A DNA stretch of 64,000 bases from Rhizophagus irregularis (taxonomy: Eukaryota). The translations under genes were made by a program, and so were the position numbers. Shown here one piece after another: positions 5,711 to 50,800 of this stretch (positions are counted from its first letter, which is position 1; each line of letters opens with the position of its first letter). The stretch is from positions 4,650,001-4,714,000 of the forward strand of contig NC_089433.1 in NCBI RefSeq assembly GCF_026210795.1. The letters are read 5' to 3'. Below the pieces are notes generated by a model, which saw nothing but the letters and a program-made list of their open reading frames with translations, ran no database searches and was not told the DNA's origin.

Positions 5711-8700
5711 CAACCATTGTAATTATTAAGGATTTTATCTCCTCATACATTAACCGTTCGAATTTACGGGAGATAAATTTTCCATAATAAACAAAATCAT
5801 ATAACCACATCCTTTTCCTCTAATGATAATATGATTTATTTTATTATTTTGATTAATGTATATAAATATCAGACAATAAAGATAACAGATAAGAATAGTT
5901 AGTATAAATTTATTGAACTAATGTAACAAGAATTTAAGAATAAATGGATTCTAAAGAAAATATATAATTTAGAATTTGTGAAACATGCCAAGAAATGTAT
6001 CTAATTGATTTTACAAATTATTTTTACGTACTGTATATCTTATTTTGTTCCAGCAGGTTCTAAATGATAGTTATTAATAATTTTTAAATTTTTTTTTGTC
6101 TTTTGTTCTATAAAAAGTTAGTAGTAGTATTTTTATAACATGCTAAATTTTGCATGCAATAAAAATTTCTTTTATTATAGTAATTTGCAAAATTAATTTG
6201 TTGTGGATTTTAGAAATTAGTGATTCTTGCTGCACAAAGTCTCCTGCAATACATAGTCGTATTGTTGAACATTTTAATCTTGTAATAAGTGATAAAATAA
6301 AAATAAACCAATAATAATATAATCATTTTTATCATATATATCTTTGTATAATAAATATGTTAGTTAATAAATATTTTATATTTAGAAAGTTTCAATTTTA
6401 CTATTTTTAATTAAAAGATTTGTTTAATTTTATTATGAAGAAAAAAGAGGAAATAATAATGAAATTTAATTTTTGATTATTAACCATAAAATATTAATAA
6501 TATATTATATTATTATAGATTTCAAAAGTAGATATTATATAGCTTATTATAAGTTGTTGATCCTTATTGTATATTTAGATAGTAAAACAAAAGAAATTCA
6601 AAAATATAAAACTATTATAAGAAATTATTTATAAAATATTCTAGTATAATAGACTTTTATCAATTTTTTTTACTTAATATTATACAATGTAAATTTAAAA
6701 TATAAAATAAGTTTAAAATTGTTTCAATTATCAAACAAAACTTTCTTTTTTATTTTAGATTCTTCATATTAATAATTTATTTTGTGTTTTATTAAATTTC
6801 TTACCAAAATCAAAAATATCCATTCTCTATCAAAGCTTTGAAAATTAATAATCCCACTTCCGTCATTAAAGATAATTCAACAACAAACTATGGAGAGTTG
6901 AATAATATTTTGTGGAACTTTAGAAGTTTTCCAGAGTTCCATCCAACATGATTTATTACAAAAGAATTCCTCATAAATGATAATCAAGAATGGGCCAAAA
7001 ATATTTATTAACATACCCTATAATACAAACAAATTTGCAATTAATAACCATTAATTAGATAATGTATATTTCTTTGCTGAACAATTGTTAAAAAAGCTTT
7101 TGGTGGTATACAGTACATGATCAGTCACATTACAAAAAGAATTCTCAATACTTAAATCTAAAAAAATGTTACACATTATTATAATTAAATTACAACTTTT
7201 GGATATTTTATTATTTTTTTGACAATATAGTAAAATTATCACATATACTATGTATATATATTATAAAAATTACATTAATGAATAATAATCTGTTACATTG
7301 TATCTGGTAATATAATTAAAAAGATTACTCATGATTATGCTTATTTTGGGATTGTATTTAAATTAATGAGAAATAATAATGAAGGTATAGATGAGAACCT
7401 TAAATGCATTTCCAAAATATATAAAGTCAAACAACAGACCCACAATCATTACTTATGATAATATTATTAGTCAATAACATAGGAAAGATTTTAATGGAAA
7501 AAGTCATTCAGATGCAGATTTGTTTATGTTGTATCAATTTATAAAACATTAAATCTGAAACATGATACATTTTTAAGAGCATCTATAAATTAAAAATTTT
7601 TTATAGTTATATCACAGATAAGGCCCTTTGAGTAGGCAAAAATTTACATAATGCAAAAAGTACACATTTATTATTATGCAAAAATCATGTGTACATTAGA
7701 AAAATTATACAAAAAAAGAATTCAAATATATATTATTATTATATAATACATATTATAAACAAGCATAATTTATACATAATAATCAATAATAATTATAAAT
7801 ATACATAATATACTTATATATTTCACCAATATTCTATTTAACTTAAATTTATTACTGACAAGTCAAGATTTTAGAATGGGAAACAATAAGTTGAAAGCTC
7901 AATGAAAACTTAATTTGAATTCTATATTTAGCTTATTAGCAATTAAAAAAAAAATCATTTTAATTGTCTATATAATGGAACCAATAATAGAATATTTTAA
8001 TTCAGGAAAGAAGGTAATAGCAAAACATAGTTTTGTCTAGAAAAAAGCCAAAAGTAATATAAACAAATCAAGTAAATTATTTAAGAATAAATTAAAGTTA
8101 TTTTATCCAAACAGGTAAAACCAAAGTGATATAACACAGGAAGAATTTATATTAAAATTAACTTACAATTATAGACTATTATTTTAGTAGTTAACTATAA
8201 CTTAAATAATATATTTCAACTATTTTATATTACAAAAAACACAGATAATGAACTCATAATACTAGATGAGAAAAAAAAGAAACTTGAATTTATAATACTT
8301 TATACTGAGGCTTATATTATTTTTATTAAATGGAAAGATAGATCAGCGTACCTTGCGTCTATTTCGTCTTTAAATGGTCCAGGGAGCTTTTCCTAAAAAA
8401 AGTATTAAAGAACATTAGTAAAACATTCTTAACAAAAAAAATTGAATAAAATAAATATATTACCAGCGTATATTGCACCCCTTGCACCCATTTCGTCTTG
8501 AATGGTCCAAGATGCCTTATTATCATTGATTTTGCTTATTAATATATTCAAATTGTAAATTTATTTTTTATACCACACACAAAGAAATTATATTTAAAAA
8601 TATTATTTAAGTAGTAATGGCAGTTATGATTGTTAGGAGAAAATTCTTATAAAAGTTATTAAATGTAATGAAAATAAATAAACATCATTATGTCATCATC

Positions 8701-10949
8701 AAACAATTATATAAAATATTTTTAATTTATAAAAATTTCATAAGCTTAAATCTTACAATCGTATTATATAAAATTATATATAGTTGCAGAAATTCGTTTA
8801 TCAGAAATTTTAATTTATAATATAATATATTTTATTACAACATATATACCATAAATAAAAATAGTATTAGAATGAATTATTACTATAAATAAATATAAAT
8901 AAATAAATTATTATGCTTGTCATATAGTTGTATTTAAGACATTACATAGGCAAATATTTCCTATTGTAATTAAAATTAAATTCTAATATTATATTATTGG
9001 AATAAATTTCTAGTTTTAGTAAATTTAAAGAATCACTAAATCTATAACAATGAATAATCACTTCAGGCTAGACAAAGGTTGTAGAATTTCTTAGATGGCA
9101 TGATCAGATCCCAATGTTTTCTAGGAGTTTCTGGGGATCCTAGTGACCCAGGTGTTGATAAATGTGCACACTGATAGAAAAAAATTGATTAAAGAAGGCG
9201 TTTTCGCCCTAAACAAGCAGGCCAAACTTTTTTTTCAAAGATTACATATAAACTTAGTGATTATATGGAGAAAAGGATTTTCTAATATCAGAAAATATTA
9301 TTTAATTAGCTGTGCAAAGGATCAATTATGTCATACAGTCATATTATATCATATTATCACGAGGCTATTTTTATTACAACAGCATGTGAGAGAGTACAAG
9401 TACATTCATTTTATAAATTTGTAAACTCGTAGATTTATCAAAATTGATATTTACACTCACTACGCATTAGCTCAATAATATTTTTGATATTTCAATTTAT
9501 ACTATATTTAGTATACATTTAGAAAGTAAAAAAAATAATTACCATATCTATTCTTAATAAGTTATTTCTTATATATGAAGTTGGTTTAATATATGAAGTT
9601 ACTTTTTTTAAGTAAATTCTTTTTATCACATATAATATTCTTATACAAGCAACAATTGTAGCGGTTAGAGATAGGTTTTAGTATGCTAAATTTTATTAGA
9701 TCTAAATATAATTTGTACTACTCGTAGAATCATACATTGAGGAAAATTATTTTATTTAGTATTACTAAGTTTTATTCCACTTATTATTGGACACCTTATT
9801 TATCTTACCGTTAGAAATGGAGTCATCCATTGGTATATATAAAACACATTAAGATAGAGTTTGTAATAAATATAATATTTATGATTTAAACATCTTTATT
9901 TGTTTGCTAAATAATAAATATCAATGTCCAATTGCAGGGCCTGGTGAATGATTTATTAGAAAAGCTGATTGACAATTGTGAAGAAATAGGTTCGATTTAC
10001 TCCTCAGCACAATTCAAATTATATAAACACGTCGGAGTTTATAAGAAAATTAATCTACTTAATATATAAAAGTTTCTTTAAATATTTGTAGTATCATAAT
10101 TGAAAACTCATATAGTTACATTCATATTATTTATTATTTAAAATTCAATTTTACTGATTTTACTCAAAAAACATATACTTTAAAAATTAATTACTTATAG
10201 TGATAATTACTAAACAAAATATGAAATATTTTTCACAAAAAATTAAATTATACAATTTACTAATCTAAACTAAATATCATTAATTATTATTTGACCAAAT
10301 ACAATAATTTCAACACAAATGTATACAGTATATAATCAGTGATGCTGGCCATTATTATTATAATAAGTAATGTTACCCTGCATTATGTTAGAGAAAAAAC
10401 CAATCCGTCCATACTATAGATTTCTTTTAAGGGCCAGAAATTCTTTAAATTATTCTATTTAAATTTAAACTTCAAATTTTTACTAATATAATTAATTTTT
10501 TATAATAAAAATATTATTATAATTAAGTCTTTTGTAAAATTTTGTGTTTTGCAAACTTTCAATAAAATTAATGCCTTTGATGTATATTAACGAGTAGCTT
10601 AAAGTATTGAATATATATAATTAATTAAGCAGTTTTACATATATTGTCATCCTTTCCATCAAAGAAAAGGTTGTGTCATTCATCGAAGCAACCCTTACAA
10701 ATACATACTAATTTCTTCCAGTCGGTAATTTCTTTGTCATGCTGGAAGAGTAATCACGAGGCTTCAGTAAGAATGAGTTTACTTTCCACCATATCAAGCT
10801 TTAGCAAAGCCTGCACCATTTATAAGTATGCTTTTTAAAGATTGACTATTTAAGAATTTTTTTTTTCTATCATAAAATTGATATGGCATTAATTATTATA
10901 TTAATATATGAATATATACATATAATGAATAAATATTATAAATAACTAT

Positions 10950-13900
10950 ATCTAAATATTATTAATTGGAGACTTAGTTCCTCACTAGAACTGGCTTTCA
11001 GTTTGTAAGTCTAACATTTGCAGATGATCTGTTATCACCTTTGTTAAAGCCTAACCTTCTAATTCCAATGCTGATTAAATATTGTGGCTACTCCTGTTGG
11101 TGTGATCATGAGTCTTACCAAATTCTTCGTCAAAATAGGTTTTATTACCGATTTTGTAATCTGTATATGTGAATTCTGCAGGGTAAATAATATTTTGTAA
11201 ATGCTGATTGCGAATGCAATCTGAATATTTGATAAATGTTTTTTCCTTTTAGGAGTGTTTCCAGATCTAGAGCACTGTTATCACCAATGTGTGAAATCAT
11301 TCTCATATTTCCCTAATGAGATAAGATTTCCAGAAAAGGGAAAGGGACATGTTACTCATATTTCTTCATTTCAATATAGATATTAACTTTTTCTATAACT
11401 TCTTATCATTATATTAAAATCTGTCTCATATTAAAACTATATATTACTTTTTATAAAATCAATCAATTAATAAGGTTGAAATTTCTGCATATAGAAAATA
11501 TAAGTTTTAAAAACTTATTAATTCCTTATTATCATATTATCACAAATTTCTAATAATTTTGATGCAAATTCTTTGAATAAAATAAATAGAAATCAAGGGA
11601 TTATTACTTATATAAAGTGAATTTTCAGCTCTGTCAGTAAATATAATTCCTGTACCCAAAGGAAGTAACTATAATCAACTTATGAATAAAAACTAAAGAG
11701 AGGGTTGATGTAATTCCAAAATATATATAACTTTAATTTTCATGTCAACTATAGTAAAGTTTTGATTCTTGCTTTTTCATGAGTGATTGAAAAAAAGCTT
11801 GTCTGATATAATTATATTGTAGTATAGGTAAATAATAATAAATGGACTTGTAGACTTATTTGTTGTATATAAAGTCTTTTTGTATAGGAGATATCTGAAA
11901 GATAGAAATTATCCTGCTACATCCAAATTTTTGAAATATCCTTTTCTAAAGTAATGTTATAAATTTTGAGCAGTAGTAACTAATTCATTCTATTATAAAA
12001 ATAATTAACTAAGATATAAATAATATTGAAATATCGAATCTCCTTGATATAGATTCATATTGTTTACTATCCAAAGTAGATCTGAAATCCTTCTGTCCAT
12101 TTCAAAAAAAAGCAATGTAAAGACTAAATGGAAAAAATGGAATATTTATATTATCTTTCATCATTCTAAAAATTTATTACCATATATCATGCATGCATAG
12201 GTTATTAATTACTATATAAGATTACTTTATTAATATGATCTGCTTTTAAATTTTCCATAATCCAAATTATGATAATTCTTATTTTATATTTTAAGCAGAT
12301 GTGTTCTTCTTATTTAAGAAACTATAATAGGAAAATTTTTTTTGGGTTATCAAGTCTTCAGTTCCCATCGTATAATAATTGGGTTGGTGATAAACTCTAT
12401 GAAATGAGTCTTTGATTTCCTTTGAGATGTGGCTGAATGCTTGCAGAATGATTCAAGTCTTATTTGCATCATCATTCAATAATTCCCTACTTCTAGTGCA
12501 AAATAAGAAAATTTCAAAAAAAAGTCTATTTGGCCTTCTCACCAAATAAAGAAAATTAAAAAAATATTACTGGTAGGGGGAATTTAAAACCAAATATATA
12601 TATATATAAGCCACTTGGCTAGATATCAAATAAAAATTATATTCTAATAAAACTAAAAAAAAATTAGATATTTTTTAATATTAAAAAGTAAAGTTAAGGA
12701 TCATGTTTATTTTAATAGATTCCATTTGATTAGATGGTAAATGAATGTAATATGAATATCCATTCCAGCAATTTTTGAATCATATTTTTGAAAATTACTG
12801 TAGGTAATAATTATTTTAATATACAGCACCTGTGTTTGTAACATGTTTGGATGTAATAATCCACTCATAATCTTTCAAGCACTTTAGTGTATAATTACAT
12901 ATTGTTCCTTAATCAAAGTCTTTTTCATGCCTTGAGTAACTAGCTGAAGTTTTTTATAGTATCATGTATATTCTTCATATTCTTCAAGGAATTGAAAGTG
13001 TCATCTTTTAACCCATGAAATTTTAAGTCTTTAAGAATATGGTTTTTTGGAATGCAGATTTAACTGTAAACATATTCTCTAGTGTTCTAAATATGTCAGA
13101 AGTAGTTTTTGTTTGCTCCTGTGTAATATTAATTAATTGATTAATCATAGGGACTTTATTTATGTAAAAGGATTCAGTAACTTGGTGTATTTTAATTGCT
13201 TATATGGTATTTCAGCTTGAATAAACTATATGCATTATAGATTCTTTTGAAATTAATCTCTCTATTATGTGGTATTGCCATTTTCATATATTTTTAACTT
13301 AATTGGAGTGTATTAATGGTTAAATTGAAAATATATAATTGCTTAAGATTTATGTTTAATTTTTGATAATAATAATTTTCTTTTAATATTTTTCTATTGA
13401 TATTTGTGAAATATAGTTAATATACCTATTTAATTTTTTAGGCAAATTTTGAGTTCAGAATCCTGCATAGGTTGTATGTTTACTGTTTATAATTAAATGT
13501 AATAAAATTGTAATTCAAATAATCATAAACACAATCCTGTTCTGAACTCTTTGGTAATGCCGTTTGTTTAAACTTGATATAACACCTCTACAAGATTCTG
13601 AACAGTTTTCTGACAAAACGTGTTTCATACATCACTATCAGTAATAATCTTGCCAAATGTTCATCTTCCATTCCTCCAGATAGTTTGGTCATTAATAGTA
13701 TGGCTATATTGTCCACCACCTTGAGAACTGGTTGGTTATATTTTTTCCAGAAAGTAATTCTGATACTTTTAGCAAGATTTGAGTTTTATGTTTCCGAACT
13801 GGAGAAAGCCATTTTTTCATTTGAAAATTGACAATCCGATCAGCTTAGAAAAATTTTCTTCTGTGTGATTTGCTAATAAGTATTTAAAAATAGATTACAC

Positions 13901-14724
13901 CACTTTCATTTCTTAAACTTTCACTTTCCTCACATAAATTAAAGAGTGTTCTGTTAAAAAAGGCATCACTGAACAAATCCCTATACAAAGAAGTATCTCT
14001 GTTTCACCTGAAGATAAACCATAGCTCTTGAGAAATTCTAAAAACTTTACTATGTGCCACTTTTCATTTTGTAAAAGTACAATAGCTGTCTTTCCACTTG
14101 TTTTATCATTAATATCATGAATAAGAAAAGTAAAATTGATGTGCTTTTTTAAAACACCATAACTTAATTTATAAAGTAATGCATATTCATCACAATATTT
14201 GCTCCAGTATTTAATGTATTACAATAGATTGTTGAGAATCTTTCTTAGAAGTTCTCTGGCAATACTGATTTATTTAAGGTTTAATATTTAAACAATACCT
14301 GTAAGATGTTAGGAATGTGTCGTATAAATTTATTGAAATTTTGTTCATCTCTGAAAGGCTCTTCAAGTACATCCATAACTATGGTATTCTTATCTTTCTG
14401 AATTGTATTATATAATATAATTCGTGAAATTCCATAATTTTCTTCAATCTTTAAATCAAAAATTTTCGATAAATTTAATTTATGATCTAATATATCATCA
14501 AGAGATGATTTGGGATAATTCTGTGATTCATCATTAGACAATAATGATCTTATTTCATTATAAAGTAATAACTGATCAAGGAATTTTGCTTTATTGTGGT
14601 AAATATAATTCATGTGGTTAATATTATATTGGTTGATGAGAAAGATTTGGTTTTTGATATTGATTGATTTAAGTATATTTAATACTGAATTCTTCATCGT
14701 AATTTGTTTTCTTTTTCTGTACAT
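10950..14724 (-). pseudogene. Decayed long coding region of unknown identity
   Basis: The 147-aa ORF 14281-14724 is followed on the minus strand by protein-like stretches (ISIARELLRKILNNLL*YIKYWSKY; KWLSPVRKHKTQILLKVSELLSG; ELLNDDANKT*IILQAFSH; YSDCIRNQHLQNIIYPAEF) broken by stops and frameshifts. Confidence 0.55.
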
Positions 14725-14974
14725 CTTATTTGATATATGATATTATATCTTTAGTTGATCATGTATTTAAAATCTATTGACCAAGGTATTAATATTTTTC
14801 AAGTACTTTTGTAGTATCATTTTTATGTTTATCATTTGTTATCATATAAAATCTGAATTTTTTCCACTACCTTGTCGTTGGAAAATGTTTATGTAAATTA
14901 AACATTGTAAATAAATACTGTGTATTTCTAACATTCAGGTCCTACCAGTTTTTTTGAGTGATTAACCAAGTTTC

Positions 14975-15110
14975 TTCACTTTCTTTTGACTTGTTGCACC
15001 ATGTATCTAATATTAAATCTTTTCTGAATTCTTTGGGCTGCACCTTCCCAGAATTCAGTGCAATTTCTTTCGGGCATATTATGGAAATAATCATTCCTCC
15101 TTCTTTTATC
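14975..15110 (-). pseudogene. Myb/SANT-like (trihelix) domain remnant, PIF/Harbinger ORF1-like
   Basis: Minus-strand translation DKRRRNDYFHNMPERNCTEFWEGAAQRIQKRFNIRY..QVKRK*RNLV matches the FW...I...F...Q.K.KW.NL trihelix pattern; contains a frameshift and a stop. Confidence 0.55.
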
Positions 15111-15132
15111 AGAAAATAATGTAAGGACTAAG

Positions 15133-15200
15133 GAGCATCTTGAGCAGCCAGATTAATAATATGAGCAAAACAACGTACATGTTGATTTTCAGTATCAAAT
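15133..15200 (-). mobile_element. hAT transposase fragment
   Basis: Minus-strand FDTENQHVRCFAHIINLAAQDA matches the conserved hAT CxxH motif (RCxAHxxNL). Confidence 0.75.
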
Positions 15201-17798
15201 ATAATATTGCAAATTACAGTCTCAAATCTTGGATCTCTGATACTTGTATAGATTTCATATATATTTAGCTCAATTAAATTATTTCCCATGATTTATCTTT
15301 ATCTAATATTGCTTGGCCTCCTTCTTAAAAGCTGAATATTCTACTGTATTAGCAGTTTGAATATGTGGATTCAAAAGCATTAACTATTAGATGTATAATG
15401 TAATTACAAATTAACTATTTTTTTTAATTACAATTTTACTAATTTAATAAACTTGCTTTCTAGGTAATTTCAAATTTAATACAATTTCATCATCTGGAAA
15501 AGCCATTTCCCTTTTCAAATAAGATGATCCTTCAGGATCACTGGGTAAATCATATTTATATTTGACATATATAGATTTTGTGTCATTTACATTTACATCT
15601 ACACAGAGATCTTTAATAAATATTAATATAAATAAACTAATATTATTTTCCTAATTTTTGGTGTATTGTTTTCCTAATATATATTTGTCATATTATATTC
15701 TGGATTTTACTCTTGATCTTTAGTATATATTGATTCTTAAGCAATTATAATACAATGTCATCGAAAATTTTATAAATATATTCTTGTTAATCAATAGCAA
15801 TAAATTTCTTCTAAGTTGCGTGATAAATATATCATGTGATACTAGTTATAAAACAGATGATCATATTAATACTACCTATCATTTGCTTCAAAAATGTTAT
15901 AAGCTGGTTGTAATGATGGTTGTGATAGTAGTTGTTGTCAAATTGTGTTAGCTTTATTTTTCTTCTAAAGCTGCTTTTACAATTTTACCCCAAAGGTTTC
16001 CAATGCTTCATCATAAGCAAAAAAATGTCCAGGACTTGTTAAATTAGCAGATGGTGCGATTGATAATATAATATATTCATTATAATTTTTATAGCATAAT
16101 TGCCAAAATACCAGAACTTGAATGGTGGGATAATATTCCCTTCTTTGTCTACTGGAAGGAGACACTTGTTCATTTTGTTGTATATCTGCCAATGCATTTG
16201 TAACATTTTCTTGGTATTGCTGTGGCCTATCAATGTCACCCAAAATGATACATTTATAATCTCTGTCACTTGGACTTCCACATCTTTACTTTTGGGTATT
16301 CAAGATATGGCGTTCCAATTCTTCATCCTTAATTTCATTCTCTATTTATTTCAAATATATTCATAATAATATCTCACTAATTTGAATTTTCTATTATGTT
16401 GTCCAATATTATATTAGTAATAAAATTATTATAAAATTTTTTCATAATTCATTGTTATTAATCATTAATTTGTTAATATTCTCATAATCAGTATTGATAT
16501 AAGATAATTAATATTCAAGGTAAAAATACCAAGTTGGCTTGGTATTATGCTCGCATCATTCATCAGAACAATTAGATGCATGATAATACCAGAAACATGA
16601 ATCCTGATAATTCCAAATTGATTGCTGACTGGCCTGTATGCAATCATATTTATAAAGCTTGCTCCATCTAAAGTTTTCCTTTATCAACTTAGGAATGCAT
16701 TGATTAACTTTTAGGTCAGATATTAATCATTGCTATACAACACATTTTTAGACTATCAAAAAAATTACCAAAAGATTTTTATGAACACTATGTATTAAAA
16801 ATTTAATGTAATGATTTTAGGAGATGTTTGCACAGATTTTGGTATTAATTATAGTAATAATGGTATTTAATTAATGTTGTGTTGGATGGTTAACTATGAA
16901 TTCTAATGAGTTGTAGGAACAGGCCAAAGTTTCCCATAACAGCAATTCAAAATCCAGTCAGCATAATATAAGGCATCCATTATGAAGTACAGCAGCACCC
17001 TTGAAAGCTTAGACTGCACACTGCAATTAATTCATGAAATTTGGAGGTAACATGCCTAGTTCAAAGCAGCATGAGCTGAAATATTTTGTGATATTATTGA
17101 ATACTAAATTATAGCTGAAATTATTCAATTATAAATCTGCTTTATAGTCATAGTAGTATTCAATTAATGATTTATTAGTATTATAACAGAAATTATTAAA
17201 ATTGTAAAGTTAATTGGAAGTTGATAATATTACTTCAAATATTCATTTCCAAATACTAAAAGGGCTGGACTTTATATTATATTGTAGTGTTTTGTTTGAT
17301 TTGAAATATTTTTTAATAGCACATTAATGCATGGATGTTGACATTCAATTGTTGCCATTCTTGATGATATCCTTTTAAGTTTATGTCAAAAATTAAGACA
17401 ATTGAATAAAAATATGTTTAATATGTCATGTGGACTTTAATAAGTCGAATTAATCATATCAAACCATTTCCTGATATTAGATTTTTACTAAATTTCTTAT
17501 TTTATCAATGTTATTATTGATAATAATCGGGAATATTGATGAATAAAGAATAAATCATTCTATATTAATCTAATGGAATTGGTATGTTGATATATAAAGA
17601 ATAAATTGTTCTGTATTAATTTAATGGAATGAATTGCTGGTATATATGTAAATTAAAATCTTTATAAGTGTGGGAAACTTGATTAAATAGTAATTTTGTA
17701 ATGTGATATATAGAAGTGATAAAAATGGCCAAATTATTAATCTAAAGAAGGTCCTGTCAATATGGCTTGAGATACTTATAATAATATGAATATCGATT

Positions 17799-18167
17799 AA
17801 TCATATTCTAGTACTAGAAGTGGAAGAGTATTTGATAGGTATCTAAATTTTGTGATACCCTTACTTCTAGCCATTTTGTCATAGCGAAAAAAAAGGCAAT
17901 GATCCTTTCACTGGTATTGGTATTAATTTTTCTCGTCAATTTGAAGGTCCTCTTCTCTAATAATATGTACATCAATATGGTGAGATTGATCATATTCTAG
18001 TACTGGAAGTGGAAGAGTATTTGACAGGTATCTAAGTTTTGTGATACCCTGCTTTTAGCTATTTTGTCATGGCGAAAAAACTTTAATATTGATTCCTATT
18101 CTATGAAATAGTCCTTTTACTGGTATTAATATTGATATTTTTCGTCAATTTGAAAGTCCTCTTCTCT
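17799..18167. repeat. Two diverged ~160-180 bp direct repeats
   Basis: ATCATATTCTAGTACT(A/G)GAAGTGGAAGAGTATTTGA...CGTCAATTTGAA(G/A)GTCCTCTTCTCT occurs at ~17799-17958 and ~17989-18167. Confidence 0.85.
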
Positions 18168-19900
18168 GGCAAATATCACAGGTTTCTATATATTCCTTAA
18201 CATCATATCCCATTTGTGGCCAATAATAACAAACCAGATCATTTAGAGAATTGAGTTAGAGTTTAAACCAGATATGTTAATTGTAGTAATATTTAAATGT
18301 ATTCTCAGTTTCCATAATACTATATGTTGTTTATGATGGCATAATAATATTTTAGCATGCTATCATTATATATTAAATATAATAAAAATTTGATTTATTT
18401 AGATTTGGGTATACATTTCAAATTTGAATGATTTGTTACAATTTACTGTCAAATGTAAATTGATATTTCTGATATTTATAAAAAATATTTTTCTGCAAAG
18501 TATATTTATAATAAACTAAGTTGCACAACTAAAAATAACAACTAAAACATGTTTATTAAACAATTTCTTTGTTATTATGAGAATAATATGAATTTTTAAG
18601 ATAATTGTTGTTTAAACAATAAGCCCTAAGCCACAATTTCAAAGCCATTATTAGATTTTATTGATTTTATCACTTAAGCCATTTTCATCAGACTAAACTA
18701 AGCCATTCATATAAGCCTCTCATTATCTTGTAATTCACATGATTTCAATTTTGAATGATACGATTGATACGTTAAAAAGATAGTTATGTTTTATAAAGAA
18801 AGTATAAAAAAAAATGAATAGTGTCAATATATCAAAATTAATAAATTGTACTATGCTAGCTCAAATATTAAAATAAAAAAGCTTTTAATGATATAATATT
18901 ATATTGAAATACAAGTAAATCTTTTTTATGAGTGAAGAGTTCTGAATTCTGATTCAATTTGTGGAAATAATATAAATGTTCTAACTTGGAATGGATAGAT
19001 CTGCAATTTCATCATATTGGCGTTTTTAAAATTTATTTAATTGGAATTGAATATAAATCAATTACGTATAAAATGTATAATGAAGGACTATTAAAAGAAC
19101 GTAATAAAATTAATCCTATCAATAATATATAGTAAGTAAAATGGAAGAATTTATTTTTATTTACTTTATTTTTATTTAGCAGTATGGATTAATCGATATC
19201 AGCGTATACAAATAAACACATTTTAACGCTAAGTTAAGCTTAACACCAAAGATGCCATGGAATAATCAAATTTTTAAAAATATTCCAAGAAACTTTCCAT
19301 ATCAATTAATCACGTGCATTTTGACCCAATGATCGATCAAATTAATGCCGGAATGAAACCATCATCAAATCACATAATATTTATCGTTGACGATCACGAA
19401 TATTGACAGTTGAGAGCAATTTAAATATACAATTTATAATAATTATTACAAATATTGGACCATCAGCAAATTAAATGTACGGATAATTTAATACTTATAT
19501 TAAAATTCAATTACAATTTACTATTTCATTATTTATCATAATGAAATAACAAAATATGAAAATTAATTAAACACATTTTCTATAATATGATTTGTTCCTT
19601 CTATTTGATTTCACCTTATTTTCCTTGATTTCTGCATGTGTTGTTTAATCTCTTACTATGATAATTTGAAGTTCATGAGATATCCTTTCCTGAACGTGAT
19701 TTTAATTTAAACTTTTTTGTTGATTATACAACACTTCACATTGATAATCATGTGTTAATTTAACGTTAATGTTTACGTAAGAAAAGAAAGTTAATACAAA
19801 AATAGAAACACTATATTCGATTATTTAACTAAACCCCTAAGTATTTTTTTTTTTTTTGTTTCCAACTCATCTGATAAATTAAAAATTTTATTAAAAAAAA

Positions 19901-22111
19901 ATGATTAAACCTCAAACCCTCGCTTATAATTCTAAGAAAATATTATCAATTCTAAATAATATCTCCAAAATTGATGGAGGCTGCACTTCTCTTATAAAAT
20001 ATCCTGTGCTTATTGGTTCTCGTGCTGCAAAATGGCACGTGCCTTTCTTCCGTGAACCTAATGATTGGGATTTAGTTGCAACCCCTTCACAATCAACTTT
20101 ATTTATTAATAAAGCTAAAAGTTCTAATGTAACTTTTAAAAATATAAAATTAATTCATTATCCAGGGGGTGGATTAAAACTTGTTGGAGGGTGTATTGAC
20201 CCATTTACAAATGGAAAATCTATCAACTTTGATATTGAACTTGTCTCTGATAAAATGGATCTTAGAACTATGAAGTCAAATGTTATTCTGAATGAAGAAG
20301 AAAGTGATGAGAATGATAATAATAATGAAGATGACAACTATATTGAGGACAACATAAACTTAATTGAAAGTAAAATTGAATTTGAAATGTTTAATGATAT
20401 TCAACCAAAAATAAGTGCTCTGATGATTTGTGATTTGTGTCGCAATATTGAAGATAAAATGTTGTTTCCATTATTATCAAGTTTTCCATGTATTGTTGCT
20501 CCATTAAAAATTCTTGAAGCTTTGAAAACATCTCACATTTATTGGCCAGCTGATTTTCAAAAGAATATTGCAGACTTGCATTTGTTAAGAATTTTATTGG
20601 GATATAATAAAGTATCAATGACTCAACCATTATGCAGTCCACAACGTGATAAGCCAATTGAACTTATGTTAAAGACTCGTATCAAGGAAACTGAAATAAT
20701 ACGAGGTAAACCAGGCGCACACATCAAATTAAATATGACCAATGAAGAATTCTTGGATCACGAAGACATTCTATTTGTACAAAAGCATGTTCCCCATGAT
20801 TACTTACATGAACTCGTTAAATATGGTGATCAACCAATTTATAAAAGTTTAAAAGATGATCAGGTATAAAAATTTAATTATTATAAGTCATTATTTGTAT
20901 AAAACCTAAATACTAACATAAAAAAAAATGCAAAATAGTCTAAAGCATGGACAAAAAAATCTCTTTTTGAAAACCTTGACTATAAAACAAAACTTAATTG
21001 CGTTAAAGAAGAAGCAATGGTAATTGCACTTGAAAGATATCTTATTCCAAAGATTTCCAAAAATCAAGAAACTTCTTACAGTTTAGCACTTTCTAGGATT
21101 TGCACTACATTGACTAGAGGATGGTTTCGCCAATTTGCAATTGATAATTATTCTAGACTTTCAAATCTTGATAAAGATTTATTACCAATAGCTTATGACA
21201 TAATTCAAAAATTTCCTATTAAACAAAAAAAATCAGATGCATTAGTACATGACCCAGAAACTCAAGCTATTTTTGAATCTATTCGTCCCTATACTGAGCC
21301 AATTTCATCATTTGAGTGCTTTCGTAATATTTATAACATTAGTGTTAATAGAACTGGAATCAAGATTACTTCTCCAGTAAATAGTAACATATCCATTACA
21401 GCTATCATTACAACTATGTTTCTACCCCATTATGATTGTACCGTAAGTGCTATTTGGACAGCTTCTGTTGTAATCTTACCTAGTGAAGATCTGGAAATCA
21501 TAAAGTATATGTCAACTTTTCTGTATTTATTTATACTTATGTGTTTATTTATTAACATTATTTAATTTTAAGTAACGAAAAAAAAAATGGTCATGCCAAA
21601 AACATGTAAGTGTTTTAATGTGTCAAAATAATTATTTTTCATCATAAGAAATCTCAAATTTAACTTAAAAATTTATTTTAGAGATCCACTTGAACAATAT
21701 GATTATGGAGATCCATTGAATCTTCACCCTTATTATTATTATGATGATAGAACACTTTCAGAATTAACTTCTAAGCATGTTTTTGTATTTGGAGCTAGTG
21801 TAGATAATAATGACGACGGAAGTTGGCGTGTGAACAGTCCAATAGCAGATTTTTGGGCTCCAATATGTATTAAAGCCAAATCAGCTGATTATATTGCAAG
21901 TGTACTTAAAATCCCTGTTCTTACTGGTGATTTATTATTTAAATATGTGCTTGATTGTTTACAACCAACTATACAAAATAATGGAGAGACACCACTTAAA
22001 TATTGGATTAATGGATTAAAAAGTAAAGGAGATATTCCAATTGAACCAAAGCAACATCTTTGGTATCATGCTTGGAATCATGCATTAAATGATGGAAAAT
22101 TTATTTATTAA
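19901..22111 (+). CDS. 663-aa protein: Pol-beta-type nucleotidyltransferase-like N-terminus, phage-like (DUF7275-like) helical domain, unknown C-terminus; exons 19901-20863, 20939-21504, 21573-21605, 21682-22111
   Basis: Three GT-AG introns (TACTAAC branch point at 20911) join three track ORFs into one stop-free frame of 1992 nt. Motifs LIGSRA-x12-DWDLV, KTSHIYW, HDYLHELV..PIY, CVKEEAMVIALERYLIP, ALSRICTTLTRGWFRQFAIDNY. Confidence 0.85.
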
Positions 22112-25304: not shown

Positions 25305-27122
25305 CTAATAAATACCAAATTCAAATTCTTCGTCTAAAAAATATTGCATAAATTAATTAAATACTGCATATATAGTACATTAAATCTTGAATAAAAATAT
25401 ATATATATATTTACCATCATCATCATCAATTTCGGTTAATTTAATTTTTTTATTTGTTCTTTCTGAATTTTTTTTTAAAAAAAAAAAATTAAAAAAATAT
25501 ATATATAATCAATGGCGCAATAGATTATAAAAACATCTGACATCACCTTCAATCAGATTAATATCAAGTTCTCTTTTATCTTTTTAAAAAATATGAAATA
25601 TTATCAGTAATAATACATAGACGCTAGACTCAGATAGTTAAGAAGCTAATAAAATAATATAATAATTACCATTAAAAAATTCATCACTACTTTGGTACGG
25701 GTCTAAATAAATAAATTTGTGAAATTATTTTACTTAAAAGAGGTAATAACTAATATAAAGATGTCTTGACCATTTACCAAGTTTTGTAAAAATTTCCGTA
25801 GATTCAACAGAATTGATCATTGTACTCAAAGATCTACTTTTATAAATAAAATCTGGATTATTTATCGTTATTGGTCCAATATCTGGTGACTTTATAATTT
25901 TAGTAGGATTATTGTCACGACAATTATCAGATTCCATTAACAAAATATTTCGAATTTTTGATTCTATATCAAAAGCTGTTGGTCTTTTCTTTGGATCATG
26001 ATGCCAACATTCTTGCATTAATTCAATATAGCCTTCAGGTGCATTTGTAACAATTGGAGGACGAAGTCCATCACATATTTGAATAATAAGTTCTGTATTA
26101 TGGTATCGATCCCAAAAAGGCCTTCTACCTGTCATCAATTCCCACATGATCATACCAAAACTATATACATCTGAAGCTTTAGTATATTTCTTTCCCTGAA
26201 TAATCTCTGGATCCATGTAAGGAATAATTCCATAAATCTCATTATAATCAGAATCTAATGATTCACTTACGATTTTTGCCTCCGCTAAATCACCTATAAT
26301 CGCAAAATTTCTTTCAAGTAAAATATTTCCACTATGAATATCCCCATGAACTATATTTGCATTATGCATATTTTTAAGTCCAAGTATAATGTAATTCAAT
26401 ATATTTAACTTATCTATCCAATTATGTTTTAAAAAATCATCGATTAAATAATGCGCTAGATCTCCTGATTCATAATATTTAATGACTATCGCAAAATTCT
26501 GAGTAGTAGGATCTAGAGTGATTCCATAATATTTATTAATATATGGATAATAACCGTCATTATCACATGGATCATAACTAGCCATTGAAAGTATGAATTT
26601 ATAAAACATCTTAATCTAAAGTTAATGTAAGTATTGTTATTATATTATATGATAAATTAAATTAATATTCAATAATCAAAAATACCGTACCTCATTTAAA
26701 CCTCCAGAATTGATGTATTTAGAACTACTAAGTTTCTTAAGTACAACGTTCATTTCACCATAACTATCATACTTCTGTTTTTTATGATTCCAATAAGAAA
26801 TTGGTCCATCAATCCAAGTGGCCTTATAAATTTTACTAAATCCTCCTACGGCAATAAATTCTATATCTTTAAATCTATCATAAGGAATAAATTCCATTTT
26901 ACCCGCTTTTTCATTACGATTGGTCAAAGTATATTTTATAAAATCATCAACAACTCTATTTCCGCTTGGTATAAATGCTGTCATCGGTTTGTAACATGAT
27001 TTACAAATTTGAAATTCATTTAAATATTTTCTTTTTCGATCGCATCCATTACATTTCTTAAATTCATCAAGTACGTTGTGCATTGATTTAATTTTTGGTC
27101 TATTTTTTGTTGTACGCTCCAT
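25305..27122 (-). CDS. Tyrosine-kinase-like (TKL) protein kinase, copy 1; main exons 27122-26691 and 26615-25778, then several small 3' exons (tentative, stop at 25305)
   Basis: CxxC..CxxC N-terminus, SGNRVVDDFI, IAVGGFSKIYKATW, VVLKKL, HGDIHSGNILL, GDLA, PYMDPE, DVYSFGMIMWE, CWHHDPKKRP. In-frame GT-AG intron 26690-26616. Confidence 0.92.
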
Positions 27123-27509
27123 GATAATTATACCGTATATTATTAAATTCTTGAAAAAAAATATTTGCAAAATGAAGGAAAGATTGAAAAAAAAAAAATC
27201 TTAATTACGCCACATTTATTTTCGGTGATTACAAAAATTTAAAAATAAGTGATCGTCACAACGCATACTTTTGAATTCCACGAATAATATTCATTTAAAA
27301 ATTTATTTAAATAAAAAATTTGCCTTTATAATTCCTCGAATAAACGATGAAAAATATATTTTAGTCTGAAGATCGTGCATTTAATGTATTGTACATAGAA
27401 AGTTTATTTTTATACTATGAGTGATATAATTATTATTTTTTTTTATAAACTTTATTAGTATTGAAATAATAATTACCAATGTAATCATTCCCGATTTAGA
27501 CGTAAAAAA

Positions 27510-29183: not shown

Positions 29184-30013
29184 CAGTGAAAACAGCGATA
29201 ATTTGTCTTTTCAGTATAAAGTTAAGAATACTATTACTATTCCTTATTGTCTAATTGTATATATTTCACTGCAATGAGTTCCAAACTTAGCTGATTGTAG
29301 TTACATTAAAAATATTTAAAATTCTCTTTTTACATTTTCGGGAATTCTGAAAATTATTTTGGAATATTGCTGATGAACTAAATTGTTGGAATGCACTTTA
29401 TTGACACATGTGATAGATCAATGTATCATTGAGTTATTTCGATACTAATAAAGAAATCTATTATAAATTGTTGGAATATTCAATATAAAACTTTTAATAT
29501 TTTCTTATTACATTCGTAATATTTCATAAAAAAGTTTTTTTTCGATTCGTATTTGGTCAAAATATACGTTGTGGGTTTATATTAGAATAAATGATTTATT
29601 ATCATGCTGTAATTCCGTTCTGTAATTACGACCGACGCTATAAATTTTTATATCTGAAAACTATTAAGAATTAGAACTATTAATACCTATATTTTACACT
29701 AGTAAGTTGGCGTGGCCTATTCAAGTAAATCATTCATTATCAAGTAGTTAATTGCATGCGTTCACAATTAATTTAATAATTAAAAAAATGAGAAATAAAT
29801 ATCTATTTATTACAACAAAATTTGAAAACATTTTATAAATAAGTCTATTTAATAAAAACTAAACGCTTATACATAAACAATTTCTTTGATAGTATAATCT
29901 ATGATGAAAGTGTGTTCGTTAGATCTTAAAAGATTGAATTTAAATACATACGTCTAAAAAAGAACGTAAATTTCGTTTAAATCTAAAATATTTTATATAG
30001 TATGATATTATAT

Positions 30014-31728
30014 TTAAGCAATGCCATCATCATCATTTTCAGACAATCTAATTTTTTTCGTATCTTCATCTAAATAAATAATTAAAGATTAATAATATAG
30101 ATCATAGGTTAATCAATAATAAAATTGATTATAAGAAGAATCACCTTCAATCAAATTATTATCAAGTCTCCTTTTATCTTCTAAAGGAAAGATAAAAAAA
30201 TAATAAATAAAATATAAGATAAAAATTATTAGTAATGATAGGAAATAAATCAACACATTAAATAATAAATAAAAAACTACCATTAAAAGATCCTTCATCA
30301 CTTTGGTATGAGTCTAATAAAATATTTAAAATATTTCTTTAAAAAAAGATATTAATCATTTAAAATGAATATAAATGTAAAATATTTACCAATTTCTGTT
30401 AAGCTTCTTGTAGATTCTGTAGACATTATTAAACTCAAAGAATTGCTTTCATATATACCACTTGGATTATTTATTGTTACAGGTCCAATATCTGATGATT
30501 TTATAATTTTAGTTGGATTGCTTTCATGATAATTATCAGATTCTATAAGCAAAATATTTTTAATTTTGGATTCTATTTCAGTAATTGTTGGTCTTTTCGT
30601 TGGATCGTGATGCCAACACATTTGCATTAAATCAATATAACCTTCTGGTGCATTTGTGACAATTGGTGGTCGTAAGCCATCACATATTTCATGAATAAGT
30701 TCTATATCATGGTCTCTATCCCATAAAGGCCTTCTACCTGTCATTAATTCCCACATGATCATACCAAATCCATATATATCTGAAGCTTTAGTATATATCG
30801 GCTTTACAAAATTTTCTGGAGCAAAAAATGGAATAACCCCATAAATTTCATTACTATCATCATGTACTAATGCTGATTTGCTTAATCCTAAATCACCTAT
30901 TATTGCAACGTTATTTTCAAGAAAGACATTTCCATCACGAATATCTCCATGGATTATATTTGCATTATGCAAATTTTTAAGTCCAAGTACAATATAGTTC
31001 AATATATTTAACTTATCTAACCAACTATGATTAAAAAAATCGTTGAGTAAATAATGTGTTAAATCTCCTGATTCATAATATTTAATAATTATCGCAAAAT
31101 CTTTAGTAATAGGGTCTTGAGTAATACCATAACATTTATTAACGTATGGATAATAACCATCATTATCATACGGGTCATAACTAGTCATTGATTGTGTAAA
31201 ATTATAAAATATCTTAAGCTAAAATTAAAATTAGAAATGTTATTCATAATATTATAGTAAGTAATATTTAAACCTCATAATCGAGAAATACCGTACCTCA
31301 TTTAAACCTCTGGAATTTATGTTTTTAGTATTATGAAGTTTCTTGAGTACAACCTTCATCTCACCATAACTATCATATTTTAGTTTTTTATGATTCCAAT
31401 AAGAAATTGGTCCATCAATCCAAGTGGCCTTGTAAACTTTACTAAATCCTCCTTCAGCGATAAATTCTATATCTTTAAATCTATCATAAGGAACAAATTC
31501 CATTTTCCCAGCCATTTCATTACGATTGGTTAGAGTGTGTTTAATAAAATCATCAACTACTTTATTTCCACTTGGTATAAACGCTGTCATCGGTTTGTAA
31601 CATGATTTACAAATTTGAAATTCATTTAAATATTTTCTTTTTCGATTACATCCATTACATTTCTTAAATTCATTAAGCACGTTGTGTATTGACGTAATTT
31701 TTGGCTTTTTGCTAGTTAATTGTTCCAT
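30014..31728 (-). CDS. TKL protein kinase, copy 2 (tandem paralog); main exons 31728-31297 and 31218-30390, small 3' exons tentative
   Basis: Same intron positions as copy 1; IAEGGFSKVYKATW, HGDIRDGNVFL, GDLG, PFFAPE, DIYGFGMIMWE, CWHHDPTKRP. Confidence 0.92.
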
Positions 31729-34229
31729 GCTATTTATAAGTATATAATATTAATTTTTTTTTAAAAAAAAAAAAGTTTTCAGGTGTTGGAAGGATTTTTA
31801 AATAAAATAAATAAAAGAATAATAAATAAATAAAAAAGAGAGTAATTACGCCAAATTTCCAAAACTGTTAATTTATATTTATTTTCGGGTAAAAAAAAAA
31901 GTGATTGACATATTGCATACTCTGGAATTCCACGAAAGAAGGATATTCTAATAAGTATGTTCTTTTTTTTTGACATTTTCACAATAAAAAGCTATTTTTC
32001 ATTAAAAGATTGTGCGGCTAATAACAAATTTGGTAAATCATATTTAATGGCAAAAATATCAAACCTATATGCACATTGTCAATCTGAATGAATAAAGGAT
32101 ATTATGTTATTTATGTAATAGGGAATTTTTAAAAAAGCAAATGCAAATGGGTGATTAAGTGATGTCAACTCAACCAATGTAGCAACAATATTGCAAAATT
32201 CGAAATGATCGGCATGCTGCGGAAAATTTGGTGACGTTACTAAAGGTTCCGGAAACCGTTGAGAGTCCGGAGCTCGATTAGTATGGTTACGCCTATAGAT
32301 ACTAAAAATATTTGACAATAATAAATATATACGTATAGTGAATGTATTATAATTGAAATAAGCGATTTGCAAGATAATTGAAGTAAATCGATGTTCTTAT
32401 TACGTTAATATATCATCAATCAATAAACAACTTCTTAAACTCGGGAAATAATATTTAGACTCCTAAAAAAGGCGAGAGAAACAGGAAACGTAAATTTAGA
32501 ATTTGTTTTACTATCACGCAGTTACTAATCACTTACTATAGTGTCACGTGAGCAAGAGGCATAAGCTTGGCCACATGGTGGATTTAGTGGATTGTTATAA
32601 ATACTCTCAAAAACATTTGCAACGTTTTTTGAGGTAATCACAAATGCGTCTTTACAATAAAACGCAATGTCTATAATGGTCAAACACTACATATTTTTCC
32701 GCTTATTTTGTCGTAGGATAATTTGAGCAAATCACACTGAAGAGCAAGAGATGTCCAGAATATTTTGCTAAATGACACCGGGTACTTTCTTCGCGGAGAG
32801 CGATATATTTAATGTTCGCCTGATTTTTAATCATTTTGAATAACATGTAATGAAATGTTATATCGATCGCGTTTTCTGTAGTTTTTTAGCGTTTTTCGGG
32901 CCTGCCGCATAAAAATATCGGCCATATTCTTATTATTTCTCTGGTGTCTTGGCATGTCTAGTAATGAATGGGTAATACTAGTCATAATATACGGTAAATT
33001 TCTTGGGATATACCTATTATCTCAATTTTCATAGGTGGAGATGGATTAAAATCTAGAATTCATCCTTAATACACAAATTTCAAAAGGGTAGAAACGAATG
33101 AAAAATACACAGAATATTTTGGAAGGAATATGGTCGATCGCCAGAAAGAAGTTGCTGATTTAAAAAGACAAAATAGTGAGTTTCGAAAAAAAAATCTAAA
33201 CTAATATGTATCCAATTAGCTAGTGCTTGAAAGATTTTCTGTTGATGATTGGACTCATTGAAGAAAATGATGTCCAAAAGGAGCTTGAAAGTATGTCATA
33301 AAATGTTACGTTCAAGGTCTATAAATGACGCTTTACCGCAACATTGTCTGGATAAATCAGACATACGAACTCATGCAGAAAGAATGCATGACATAATATT
33401 TTTCCACATAGTTCGCAACTAACTCGCAACGAGACACAATGTGATGTAGACCGAATCCACCATACATTATGGTTGATGACATGAGATCAGATTAGTAGAA
33501 TGGGATAGATTTCGGATGGAAAAGAAGACTTTTATAGTTAGAAAAAGGTGAGGTTTTACTAGTAATTTCAACACAGGCTACTATAATAATCATACCAACA
33601 TTTTGGTTGGTAATCTCATATACTTACAAGGCAAGCAAAAGGCACAAGTGACCACTGGATACTTTCAACCTACAAAAATTAAACCGATAAAAACCGATAA
33701 ATTTTAATATATCGGGCGAACAAGGAAGTGTGTTACCGTTTTCAGAACCAAAACGTTTAATTAGATTATATAGTACAACAGCAGCTTGTCCAATTTTCAT
33801 GAATTAGTAAACTAGAATCTAAATACTAAATTTGTGATAAAGCTATTAAGACAAACGAAATAATGAAAGTTTAATTATCAAGTTCAATAATTTGCGTATT
33901 ACTAGAAATCGCTCAAAATGGCCATACAAATCTCACCGCGCCAGCATTAGCAAATATTAATGGGCAGAGTTTCATGACATTTTTAATTCTGCCCAAAATT
34001 CTACTCTAATTCTGGTAAGGTGACAATCACAAGCAGTGATATTTAGCAATACTCAAAAAATAATATCCATAAAAAGAGGTTAATTCGTAACACACGATGA
34101 GACTATCGTCCATCTTTATCATTTATAAATTACTGGCGACATAATTTTAATGAAGATGAAGAAGATTACTGCAGCTCTGGTGATTCTGACAATTGCGACA
34201 ATTTTCTAAAAAAAAAGAAGTTACTAATT

Positions 34230-50419: not shown

Positions 50420-50800
50420 TTATATGTCCAATATCTGATGACGCTATAATTTTAGCTGCATCAGCACATACTTCTTTTTTGTAGATAACCTTGATTTTCT
50501 CTTTTAATCAGTAGTTGTTGGTCTCTTGTTTGGATCAGAGTGCCAACATTCATTTGTAACAATTGGGGGACATATATCAATAATAAGTTCTTCATCATGA
50601 TTTTTATCCTAAAAAGGTCTTCTACCTGTCATTAATTCTCATATAATCATACCAAACTATATATATCTGATGTTTTAGTATATTTTGACCTTGAAGAACC
50701 TCTGGCGCAACATAAGGGATAATTCCATATATCTCATTTTCATCATCAAATGATTCAATTTCAGATTTACTACTTAATCTTAAATCACCTGTTATCGTAG
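50420..50800 (-). pseudogene. TKL kinase pseudogene fragment (C-lobe)
   Basis: ITGDLRLSSK...IYGIIPYVAPEVLQG, DIYSFGMII*ELMTGRRPF*DKNHDEELIIDIC, ECWHSDPNKRPT, with stops, frameshifts and deletions. Confidence 0.85.

Follow-up and report, generated by a model that had tools for sequence, protein, structure and literature searches.

A spliced, multi-copy gene of Rhizophagus irregularis of probable viral origin, predicted to encode a MenT-like nucleotidyltransferase

Introduction

Nucleotidyltransferases (NTases) of the Pol-beta superfamily share the motif hG[G/S]x9-15 DhD (PMC3985639), to which a third carboxylate is added, and several of them have been linked to RNA ends. The MenT toxins attach nucleotides to the 3' ends of transfer RNA (tRNA), as described in passages of PMC7450476 and PMC11541572, and jumbo phages carry the RNA-repair NTases RlaP and CCA enzymes, which have been proposed to restore RNA ends (PMC7824862, in whose accessible passages the family treated here is not described). 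The present work concerns a gene at positions 19901..22111 (+ strand) of a 64,000-nucleotide stretch of the genome of Rhizophagus irregularis (assembly GCF_026210795.1, contig NC_089433.1, positions 4,650,001 to 4,714,000), hereafter the window, in which a preliminary description made from the letters alone had seen an intron-containing gene for a phage-like NTase. In the R. irregularis annotation the gene is listed as uncharacterised, and the Pfam families DUF7275, DUF7276 and DUF7277 to which its product belongs have no assigned function. A literature search, whose coverage left out supplements and subscription journals, found no paper on these three families, on PF23940 or on phrog 2141; the word 'nucleotidyl' does not occur in the available passages of PMC10234402 and PMC11291939, whose supplements, or those of PMC10640383, might list the gene. 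The evidence gathered here points to a spliced, multi-copy fungal NTase that derives from a virus of eukaryotes and would extend RNA 3' ends, probably those of tRNA, for a conflict-related use; as a complete chain this reading is proposed tentatively, at somewhat less than an even chance.

Gene structure and splicing

Three long plus-strand frames occupy 19895-22111 in the scan of the window for open reading frames (ORFs), and the joining of exons 19901-20863, 20939-21504, 21573-21605 and 21682-22111 yields a single frame of 663 amino acids (aa) with one terminal stop. Since 60 combinations of GT-AG sites preserve the frame, with a product of 652 aa when the microexon is skipped, the gene model needed outside evidence. 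The 663-aa product shows no difference from the R. irregularis protein P0265 (OCT59_025535 / XP_065992159.1) and differs by one residue from P0001. Contigs from four runs (X1, X3, X4 and X10), belonging to four studies, were also compared with the locus; in three of them (X1, X4 and X10) exactly 75, 68 and 76 nt are skipped at GT..AG with the microexon kept, and the X3 contig is unspliced, with the introns retained. The RNA status of the runs is a guess, X1, X4 and X10 being taken as RNA because their joins are spliced. The four-exon, 663-aa gene model is confirmed and is the supported one. The preliminary description had proposed the same splicing of three ORFs and a 33-nt microexon into an intact frame and had called for a check of the three junctions by RNA; both the annotated protein and the exact splicing in contigs of three studies bear it out.

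Exon 1 (19901..20863, +; codons 1-321) encodes the predicted NTase catalytic domain (DUF7277), an acidic low-complexity insert and the first half of DUF7275, and is followed by intron 1 (20864..20938, +; 75 nt, phase 0, GT-AG), which is spliced in X1, X4 and X10. The second half of DUF7275, with the EE..V.ALER and CTT..GWFR motifs, and the start of DUF7276 are encoded by exon 2 (20939..21504, +). Introns 2 (21505..21572, +; 68 nt) and 3 (21606..21681, +; 76 nt), both GT-AG, in phase 2 and seen spliced in the contigs, enclose the 33-nt microexon (21573..21605, +), which is present in the X1 and X4 contigs and at the X10 joints and corresponds to a variable, low-confidence loop of the predicted structure (predicted local distance difference test, pLDDT, below 50 at residues 512-524). 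Exon 4 (21682..22111, +) supplies the remainder of the DUF7276 C-terminal domain and the stop.

Domains and conserved residues

The spliced product matches, from N- to C-terminus, DUF7277 (PF23942, residues 35-180, 108 bits), DUF7275 (PF23940, residues 204-410, 260 bits, E 1.5e-77 for the full protein) and DUF7276 (PF23941, residues 424-658, 336 bits), all above gathering cut-offs of 27, as well as PHROG 2141 (E 9e-27) and PHROG 6944 (E 2e-12). The DUF7275-like phage family that had been named for this gene was thus recovered in Pfam, in PHROGs and in phage records. Among the proteins scanned with Pfam, DUF7276 was matched by fungal proteins alone. NCBIfam gave nothing above cut-off, PADLOC gave no match for seven proteins, and an Atlas search matched the gene, like the small phage partner discussed below, to DUF or unnamed clusters only.

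Conservation was counted over 157 aligned homologues. Pol-beta motifs I-II (20009..20071, +) comprise LIGS at 20009-20020 (G39 and S40, 154/157 each), R51, and DWD at 20063-20071 (D55 in 155, D57 in 157), the positions at which LIGS and DWD had first been read. D111-I-E113 (20231..20239, +) is a candidate third catalytic carboxylate strand, with an acidic residue at 111 in 148/157 and E or D at 113 in 135/157. The protein therefore contains the superfamily motif (I38-G39-S40, a spacing of 14 residues, D55-W-D57) together with a putative third carboxylate (D111/E113). Further on, K209-x-S-H212 and K221-xxx-D225 (20525..20575, +; conserved in 157, 155, 151 and 136 of the homologues, respectively) resemble motifs III and IV of MenT/AbiEii in order and spacing, and the near-invariant, family-specific H299-D300-x-x-H303 (20795..20809, +; 155, 155 and 154) is a putative metal site. 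Four residues (D57, K209, E345 and E346) are invariant in all 157 proteins, and G39, S40, D55, H212, R260, H299, D300, H303, E353 and R354 are kept in at least 154. The window copy retains 20 of 20 marker residues, and the other motifs quoted in the preliminary description are all present in the translation.

Predicted fold and relation to known nucleotidyltransferases

Structures were predicted for the fungal protein and for a phage homologue, P0123, which is the very protein encoded on IMG/VR locus L053 and was modelled with 124 sequences in the alignment. The phage model (pLDDT 95.6) retrieved MenT1 in Foldseek at E 7.6e-6 and, in VIA, MenT1 (Z 9.3, root-mean-square deviation (rmsd) 3.7, 159 residues aligned), MenT3 (8.5), MenT4 (7.1), ANT(2'') (7.1) and LnuA (6.1); NTases or NTase-like proteins make up all nine top VIA rows and all seven Foldseek matches at E<=0.001. 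With the fungal model (pLDDT 76.6), VIA gave MenT3 (Z 8.2, rmsd 4.9, 183 residues aligned, residues 27-392), MenT1 (7.6) and MenT4 (7.2), the top alignments covering residues 27-394, and the first 12 Foldseek rows were MenT3 or MenT1. PDB 5uvd, an NTase-like protein of the fungus Paracoccidioides, was also noticed among the structural neighbours (Z 5.4-6.5). The Pol-beta membership that had been read from the motifs, and for which a predicted structure and Foldseek had been named as the check, is supported by these models: a Pol-beta-type NTase fold is almost certainly the right prediction, and the protein is predicted to be two-lobed, with MenT1, MenT3 and MenT4 as its nearest solved relatives, the resemblance being moderate (best matches Z 7.1-9.3, rmsd 3.7-4.9, 159-183 residues). 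No fold was identified for the C-terminal domain, which was searched within the full model (rows Z<=4.5).

The likeness to MenT/AbiEii (DUF1814) extends to the arrangement hG[G/S]-x14-DhD with its Arg at a distance of four residues ahead of the first Asp, to a single invariant Lys and to a +xxxD further along the chain. The Arg within motif II that marks DUF1814 is represented by R51 (R or K in 135/157), which precedes D55 by four residues as R63 precedes D67 in AbiEii (PMC3985639); the K209-D225 spacing may likewise be set beside K171-D186 of MenT4, given in a passage of PMC7450476, the mapping of K209, K221 and D225 to MenT motifs III and IV being by spacing and not by superposition. Several observations speak against a MenT-like enzyme. 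The motif III (KLxAaxxR) Arg is absent, the position seven residues after K209 being P in 62, K in 59 and R in 14 of the 157 homologues, and the first Asp of motif IV (+DxxD) is absent too, being T, H or N, with K221 and D225 kept; the protein is therefore not filed as DUF1814. The fungal model has no PDB match at E<=0.001 in Foldseek, Z values of 7-9 are close to the level that VIA gives models without a clear match, and the small-molecule NTase ANT(2'') equals MenT4. The family also differs from MenT/AbiEii in its extra HDxxH, EE and GWFR motifs, in being viral and fungal rather than bacterial, and in that no known antitoxin family adjoins it and no fungal partner gene was seen; a sequence-level match to MenT is absent (0 PDB matches at E<=10), and AbiEii and RlaP are not among the Pfam families listed for 124 homologues (25 of 31). 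On the predicted structures it is nonetheless plausible that the protein works like MenT.

The RlaP and CCA enzymes of jumbo phages are likewise Pol-beta NTases of large phages, and some members of the present family have tRNA, Thg1 or CCA enzyme genes nearby. CCA enzymes, however, reach only Z 4.2-4.8 against the phage-homologue model, and of the two marks of RlaP, a profile match and linkage to an RNA ligase, neither was found (no profile among the families listed, no ligase among 108 neighbours from 19 loci).

An active NTase that modifies a protein or a small molecule instead of RNA, by NMPylation or by making a nucleotide signal, would also fit part of these data, since ANT(2'') and LnuA stand just behind MenT among the structural matches and the family's own invariant residues (H212, HDxxH, EE, ER, GWFR) are not described for MenT. 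Against such an acceptor, only the MenT-type alignments of the phage model span both lobes (residues 1-280), whereas those of ANT(2''), LnuA and poly(A) polymerase cover the first lobe only (1-150); the neighbourhoods of the phage genes bear on the same question.

Genomic neighbourhoods in phages

Fifty phage and metagenome loci fall into 17 clusters, in eight of which a tRNA or transfer-messenger RNA (tmRNA) gene lies within 10 kb of the NTase gene; in six of these eight the distance is within 2.5 kb, where random placement of one gene would be expected in a quarter. At one locus the gene for Thg1 (tRNA-His guanylyltransferase) comes directly after the NTase gene and is followed by seven tRNA genes (L117:10795-11598 and 13081-15635), and in Bacillus phage G a tRNA nucleotidyltransferase is encoded 2.7 kb upstream of the family member. 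The other side of the account is that nine of the 17 clusters have no tRNA or tmRNA gene, that the tRNA count stands without a control gene set, and that, among 108 of the 160 neighbours listed for 19 phage loci, an RNA-repair enzyme occurs in one neighbourhood and an RNA ligase in none. At three loci (L053:11974-12365, L054:11769-12278 and L056:11803-12306) the phage encodes a permuted tmRNA, its gene lying about 1.1 kb downstream of that for the NTase; at L054 and L056 a tRNA called SeC (tca) is present as well.

A gene for a small acidic protein (PHROG 8206/18295) lies within 700 bp of the NTase gene in 16 of the 34 sequence clusters of fetched loci; counted by locus, the family (e.g. L103:10621-10950) is found in 74 of 141, directly downstream of the phage NTase and often in two or three tandem copies. 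It carries the motifs GGE.QG..YW and GWY.SY.G and has no Pfam family and no known fold. This small protein could be the substrate or a regulator of an enzyme with a protein acceptor, but the gene occurs in only part of the phage tree, no match to it could be detected within the fungal or long-form proteins, and tRNA genes are close in six clusters. A protein or small-molecule acceptor is thus rather unlikely, although it deserves to be kept in mind; RNA is the probable acceptor, if only just.

Distribution of the family

In a tblastn search, 719 of 50,697 phage records matched, in the core only (residues ~160-450; best E 2e-28), and a profile search gave 1,954 clusters (50% identity) at E<=0.001, of which the best 150 were listed. 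Three full-length phage proteins of 270-334 aa share the GS, DxD, K.SH, HD..H, EE, ER and GWFR motifs, and some Acinetobacter phage homologues are annotated as 'putative nucleotidyltransferase'. The phage and viral relatives are single ORFs and the fungal gene has three introns, in agreement with the earlier suggestion that introns were gained. Bacterial occurrences are rare: one of 401 Bacteroidota genomes (the seed itself, with a stop inside the match), none of 14 control genomes and three of 72,556 plasmids, and a strict-pattern scan of GTDB returned one locus. This sole GTDB match (L128/L149, on G003:C346), on a contig of a Flavobacterium metagenome-assembled genome, has a TGA inside the match; mis-binning of a phage contig, a pseudogene or recoding of the gene could account for it. 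The preliminary description had left the choice between a viral and a bacterial source; the viral affinity stands, and the bacterial one does not, the family being nearly absent from the bacterial genomes and plasmids searched.

The named eukaryotic members belong to Rhizophagus (three species), Glomus, Acaulospora, Entrophospora, Mucor (three species), Parasitella and Backusella, so that the gene, at first taken as one of a mycorrhizal fungus, is carried by Mucor, Parasitella and Backusella too. All eukaryotes found among the named matches belong to Mucoromycota (word-based searches; best 150 of the 1,954 clusters). Giant viruses also hold members: in BFVD the best match was Sylvanvirus (E 4.7e-20), with Satyrvirus at rank 8, both of them soil nucleocytoplasmic large DNA viruses (NCLDV) according to passages of PMC6243002, and a 575-aa form (L051) is encoded by a 530-kb contig on which NCLDV genes for capsid, VLTF3, PolB and capping are also present. 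When the fungal protein alone was used as query no IMG/VR locus was found, and two sub-alignments of the unnamed long forms retrieved no long-form locus.

Phylogeny and origin

Trees of the core region were built from 81 rows (quick) and from 37 rows (careful), with L077, L127 and L052, mis-extracted or partial ORFs, excluded. All fungal proteins fall in a long-form clade together with 16 non-fungal proteins, which are intronless and environmental (support 100/97 in the 37-row tree, 97 in the quick one); Glomeromycotina and Mucorales are each supported at 99-100. A grouping of the fungi with seven phage-type proteins as one side was rejected by the approximately unbiased (AU) test (p=0.005), a grouping chosen after the trees had been seen. 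The fungal tail has homology to that of the non-fungal long forms (HH probability 97%, E 1.2e-10): a hidden Markov model (HMM) of 17 non-fungal tails recovered 11 of 12 fungal tails at E<=1.1e-4, with the best of 319 decoys at 0.26, and the reverse search was weaker (7 of 17 non-fungal tails at E<=0.003, one reversed decoy at 0.007). As the tail is common to the non-fungal long forms, the C-terminal domain predates the fungal gene, and the earlier view of a ~240-aa region added in the fungus does not hold. A separate idea, that this domain is the small phage partner gene in fused form, was rejected, with HH probabilities of 0.06-0.16%, within the shuffled range.

A viral origin of the fungal gene is very probable, and a giant-virus-like donor is the most likely one. 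Viral DNA has likewise been described in the same fungal group, as a 1.5-Mb asfarvirus-like region in R. irregularis (PMC10640383) and as viral-origin genes in Glomeromycotina (PMC10234402), which shows these fungi to have received DNA from large DNA viruses. Unlike the R. irregularis viral region, the window gene lies outside any viral island, bears introns and occurs in two subphyla.

Some of the evidence does not sit easily with a giant-virus donor. The source is known for one of the 16 non-fungal long forms only, the 714-aa P0197, and its 439-kb IMG/VR contig, G001, has weak or partial NCLDV markers (a capsid below cut-off, PolB and Rpb2 fragments) and no match to VLTF3, A32, capping, Rpb1 or Capsid_N. 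The protein of the clear NCLDV contig (L051) branches outside the long-form clade, the joint support for Glomeromycotina and Mucorales is moderate (90/72 in the 37-row tree, 94 and 96 in two others, unresolved in the 81-row tree), and the direction of transfer is inferred, because the tree is unrooted. On G001 (L141, L143 and L145), short stand-alone fragments of PolB (175 aa) and of RNA polymerase subunit 2 (135 aa) were observed, together with a divergent capsid-like ORF; the contig may represent an accessory arm of a giant-virus genome.

Two other histories were considered. The long form might be ancient in microbial eukaryotes, passed down vertically but lost from many lineages, and giant viruses might have acquired it from their hosts, the unnamed long forms then being protist genes. 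The single known source among the non-fungal long forms leaves room for this, and the branching of Mucorales and Glomeromycotina is compatible with vertical descent; the confinement of the named eukaryotic matches to Mucoromycota, within the scope given above, and the chiefly short, phage-type diversity of the family make it distinctly improbable. Alternatively, the fungus might have received the gene directly from a phage or endobacterium and have gained the C-terminal domain later, a route that could draw on the 719 matching phage records and on the fact that Mucoromycota harbour endobacteria. This had been the route first envisaged, but it is already largely disfavoured by the AU result, by the tail common to the non-fungal long forms and by the near absence of the family from the bacterial genomes searched, to which the occurrence of the family in giant viruses can be added, and it is very improbable. 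A homologue tree had been named as a check: phage homologues do exist, as expected, but the fungal proteins group with the long forms and not with the phage-type proteins.

Paralogues and selection

In Glomeraceae the gene is a multi-copy family evolving by birth and death. Of 49 Glomeraceae proteins, a set that includes strain variants and possible gene-model errors, 17 keep 20/20 marker residues, 29 have a substitution and five lack a DxD aspartate, and in the Rhizophagus paralogues P0034, P0035, P0036, P0040 and P0047, which are otherwise full length, Asn replaces one or both of the catalytic aspartates, making them, from their sequences, candidate pseudo-enzymes. The preliminary description had taken the intactness of the window copy as a sign of purifying selection. 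Among the differences listed, however, 18 are nonsynonymous and five synonymous against the X10 contigs, and six and three against the X3 contigs, where the neutral expectation is 3.7:1; these counts are low, and differences between alleles may be mixed in them with differences between paralogues. The close copies thus give no selection signal (ratio of nonsynonymous to synonymous polymorphism, pN/pS, ~1), which counts against the main reading proposed here, many paralogues have lost conserved residues, and the intactness of one copy is no proof of purifying selection.

These figures would also fit a gene that, whatever its chemistry, is a tolerated relic of viral origin, multiplying by duplication next to repeats and then decaying; the intact copy would in that case be simply young and without a host function. 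Substitutions at 11 near-invariant sites occur in 23 of the 49 Glomeraceae proteins against two of 127 short viral-type proteins, pairs of copies more than 90% identical exist within one strain, and the CpG observed/expected ratio (o/e) of the gene is 0.43 against 0.60-1.13 for seven other window ORFs, closer to the 0.30 of the depleted block described below. The gene is nevertheless spliced in three studies, and intact-looking members are found in Glomerales, Entrophosporales and Mucorales; the median identity between paralogues is higher in the catalytic (73%) and helical (76%) parts than in the tail (55%), the 17 proteins with all 20 markers persist, and the small pN/pS counts limit what can be drawn from the close copies. 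A relic without host function is accordingly considered unlikely.

Genomic context

The window is AT-rich eukaryotic DNA in which the neighbouring genes encode BTB-TLD, kinase, F-box/LRR and aspartyl protease families (Pfam). The other 44 window ORFs of at least 75 aa belong to eukaryotic families or have no match; no group of intron-poor viral genes surrounds the gene, and the locus does not qualify as a giant endogenous viral element. Outside the gene, a block at 6001..18000 (no strand) is depleted in CpG (o/e 0.30 overall, 0.16-0.59 per 2 kb, against 1.11 for 22.2-64 kb) and is without recognisable ORFs, no ORF of at least 75 aa within it having a Pfam match. CpG depletion in R. irregularis may reflect repeat methylation, and the block is likely a decayed, once-methylated repeat region. 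Two tyrosine-kinase-like genes form a tandem duplicate at 25401-27161 and 30005-31770 (-), with 78% identity over 1.8 kb, and a frameshifted kinase remnant lies at ~50489-50798 of the window.

Proposed mechanism and biological significance

In the mechanism proposed for the enzyme, D55 and D57, with D111 or E113, would bind Mg2+, G39-S40 and K209 would hold the nucleoside triphosphate, and the helical lobe would position the RNA 3'-OH for a template-free transfer of a nucleoside monophosphate. In viruses of eukaryotes, the short phage form may have given rise to the long form, which has the additional C-terminal domain; a single transfer into early Mucoromycota, or two transfers from related viruses, would then have been followed by intron gain and, in Glomeraceae, by repeated duplication with many copies decaying. 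The role would be the marking or repair of RNA ends in virus-host conflict and not housekeeping. A bolder version, in which a hitherto undescribed MenT-like family of tRNA/RNA-end NTases passed from tailed phages to giant viruses, acquired its C-terminal domain and then entered the ancestor of Mucoromycota, and arbuscular mycorrhizal (AM) fungi amplified active and dead copies for antiviral defence or translational shut-down, as an immune or dormancy effector, is speculative and more probably wrong than right by a wide measure.

If the copies proved to be neutral relics, the interest of the gene would be reduced to that of a case study in horizontal gene transfer. A testable identity is now available for three Pfam DUFs and for a PHROG family present in at least 719 phage records, and a likely route from phage to giant virus to fungus has been traced for an enzyme whose gene has become spliced and amplified in the principal model AM fungus. 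Should tRNA ends be modified, the MenT/AbiEii toxins would have a eukaryotic counterpart in this protein, which would be a candidate for the control of viruses or of dormancy in Mucoromycota; a further implication would be that giant viruses infected these fungi long before the recent insertion already described.

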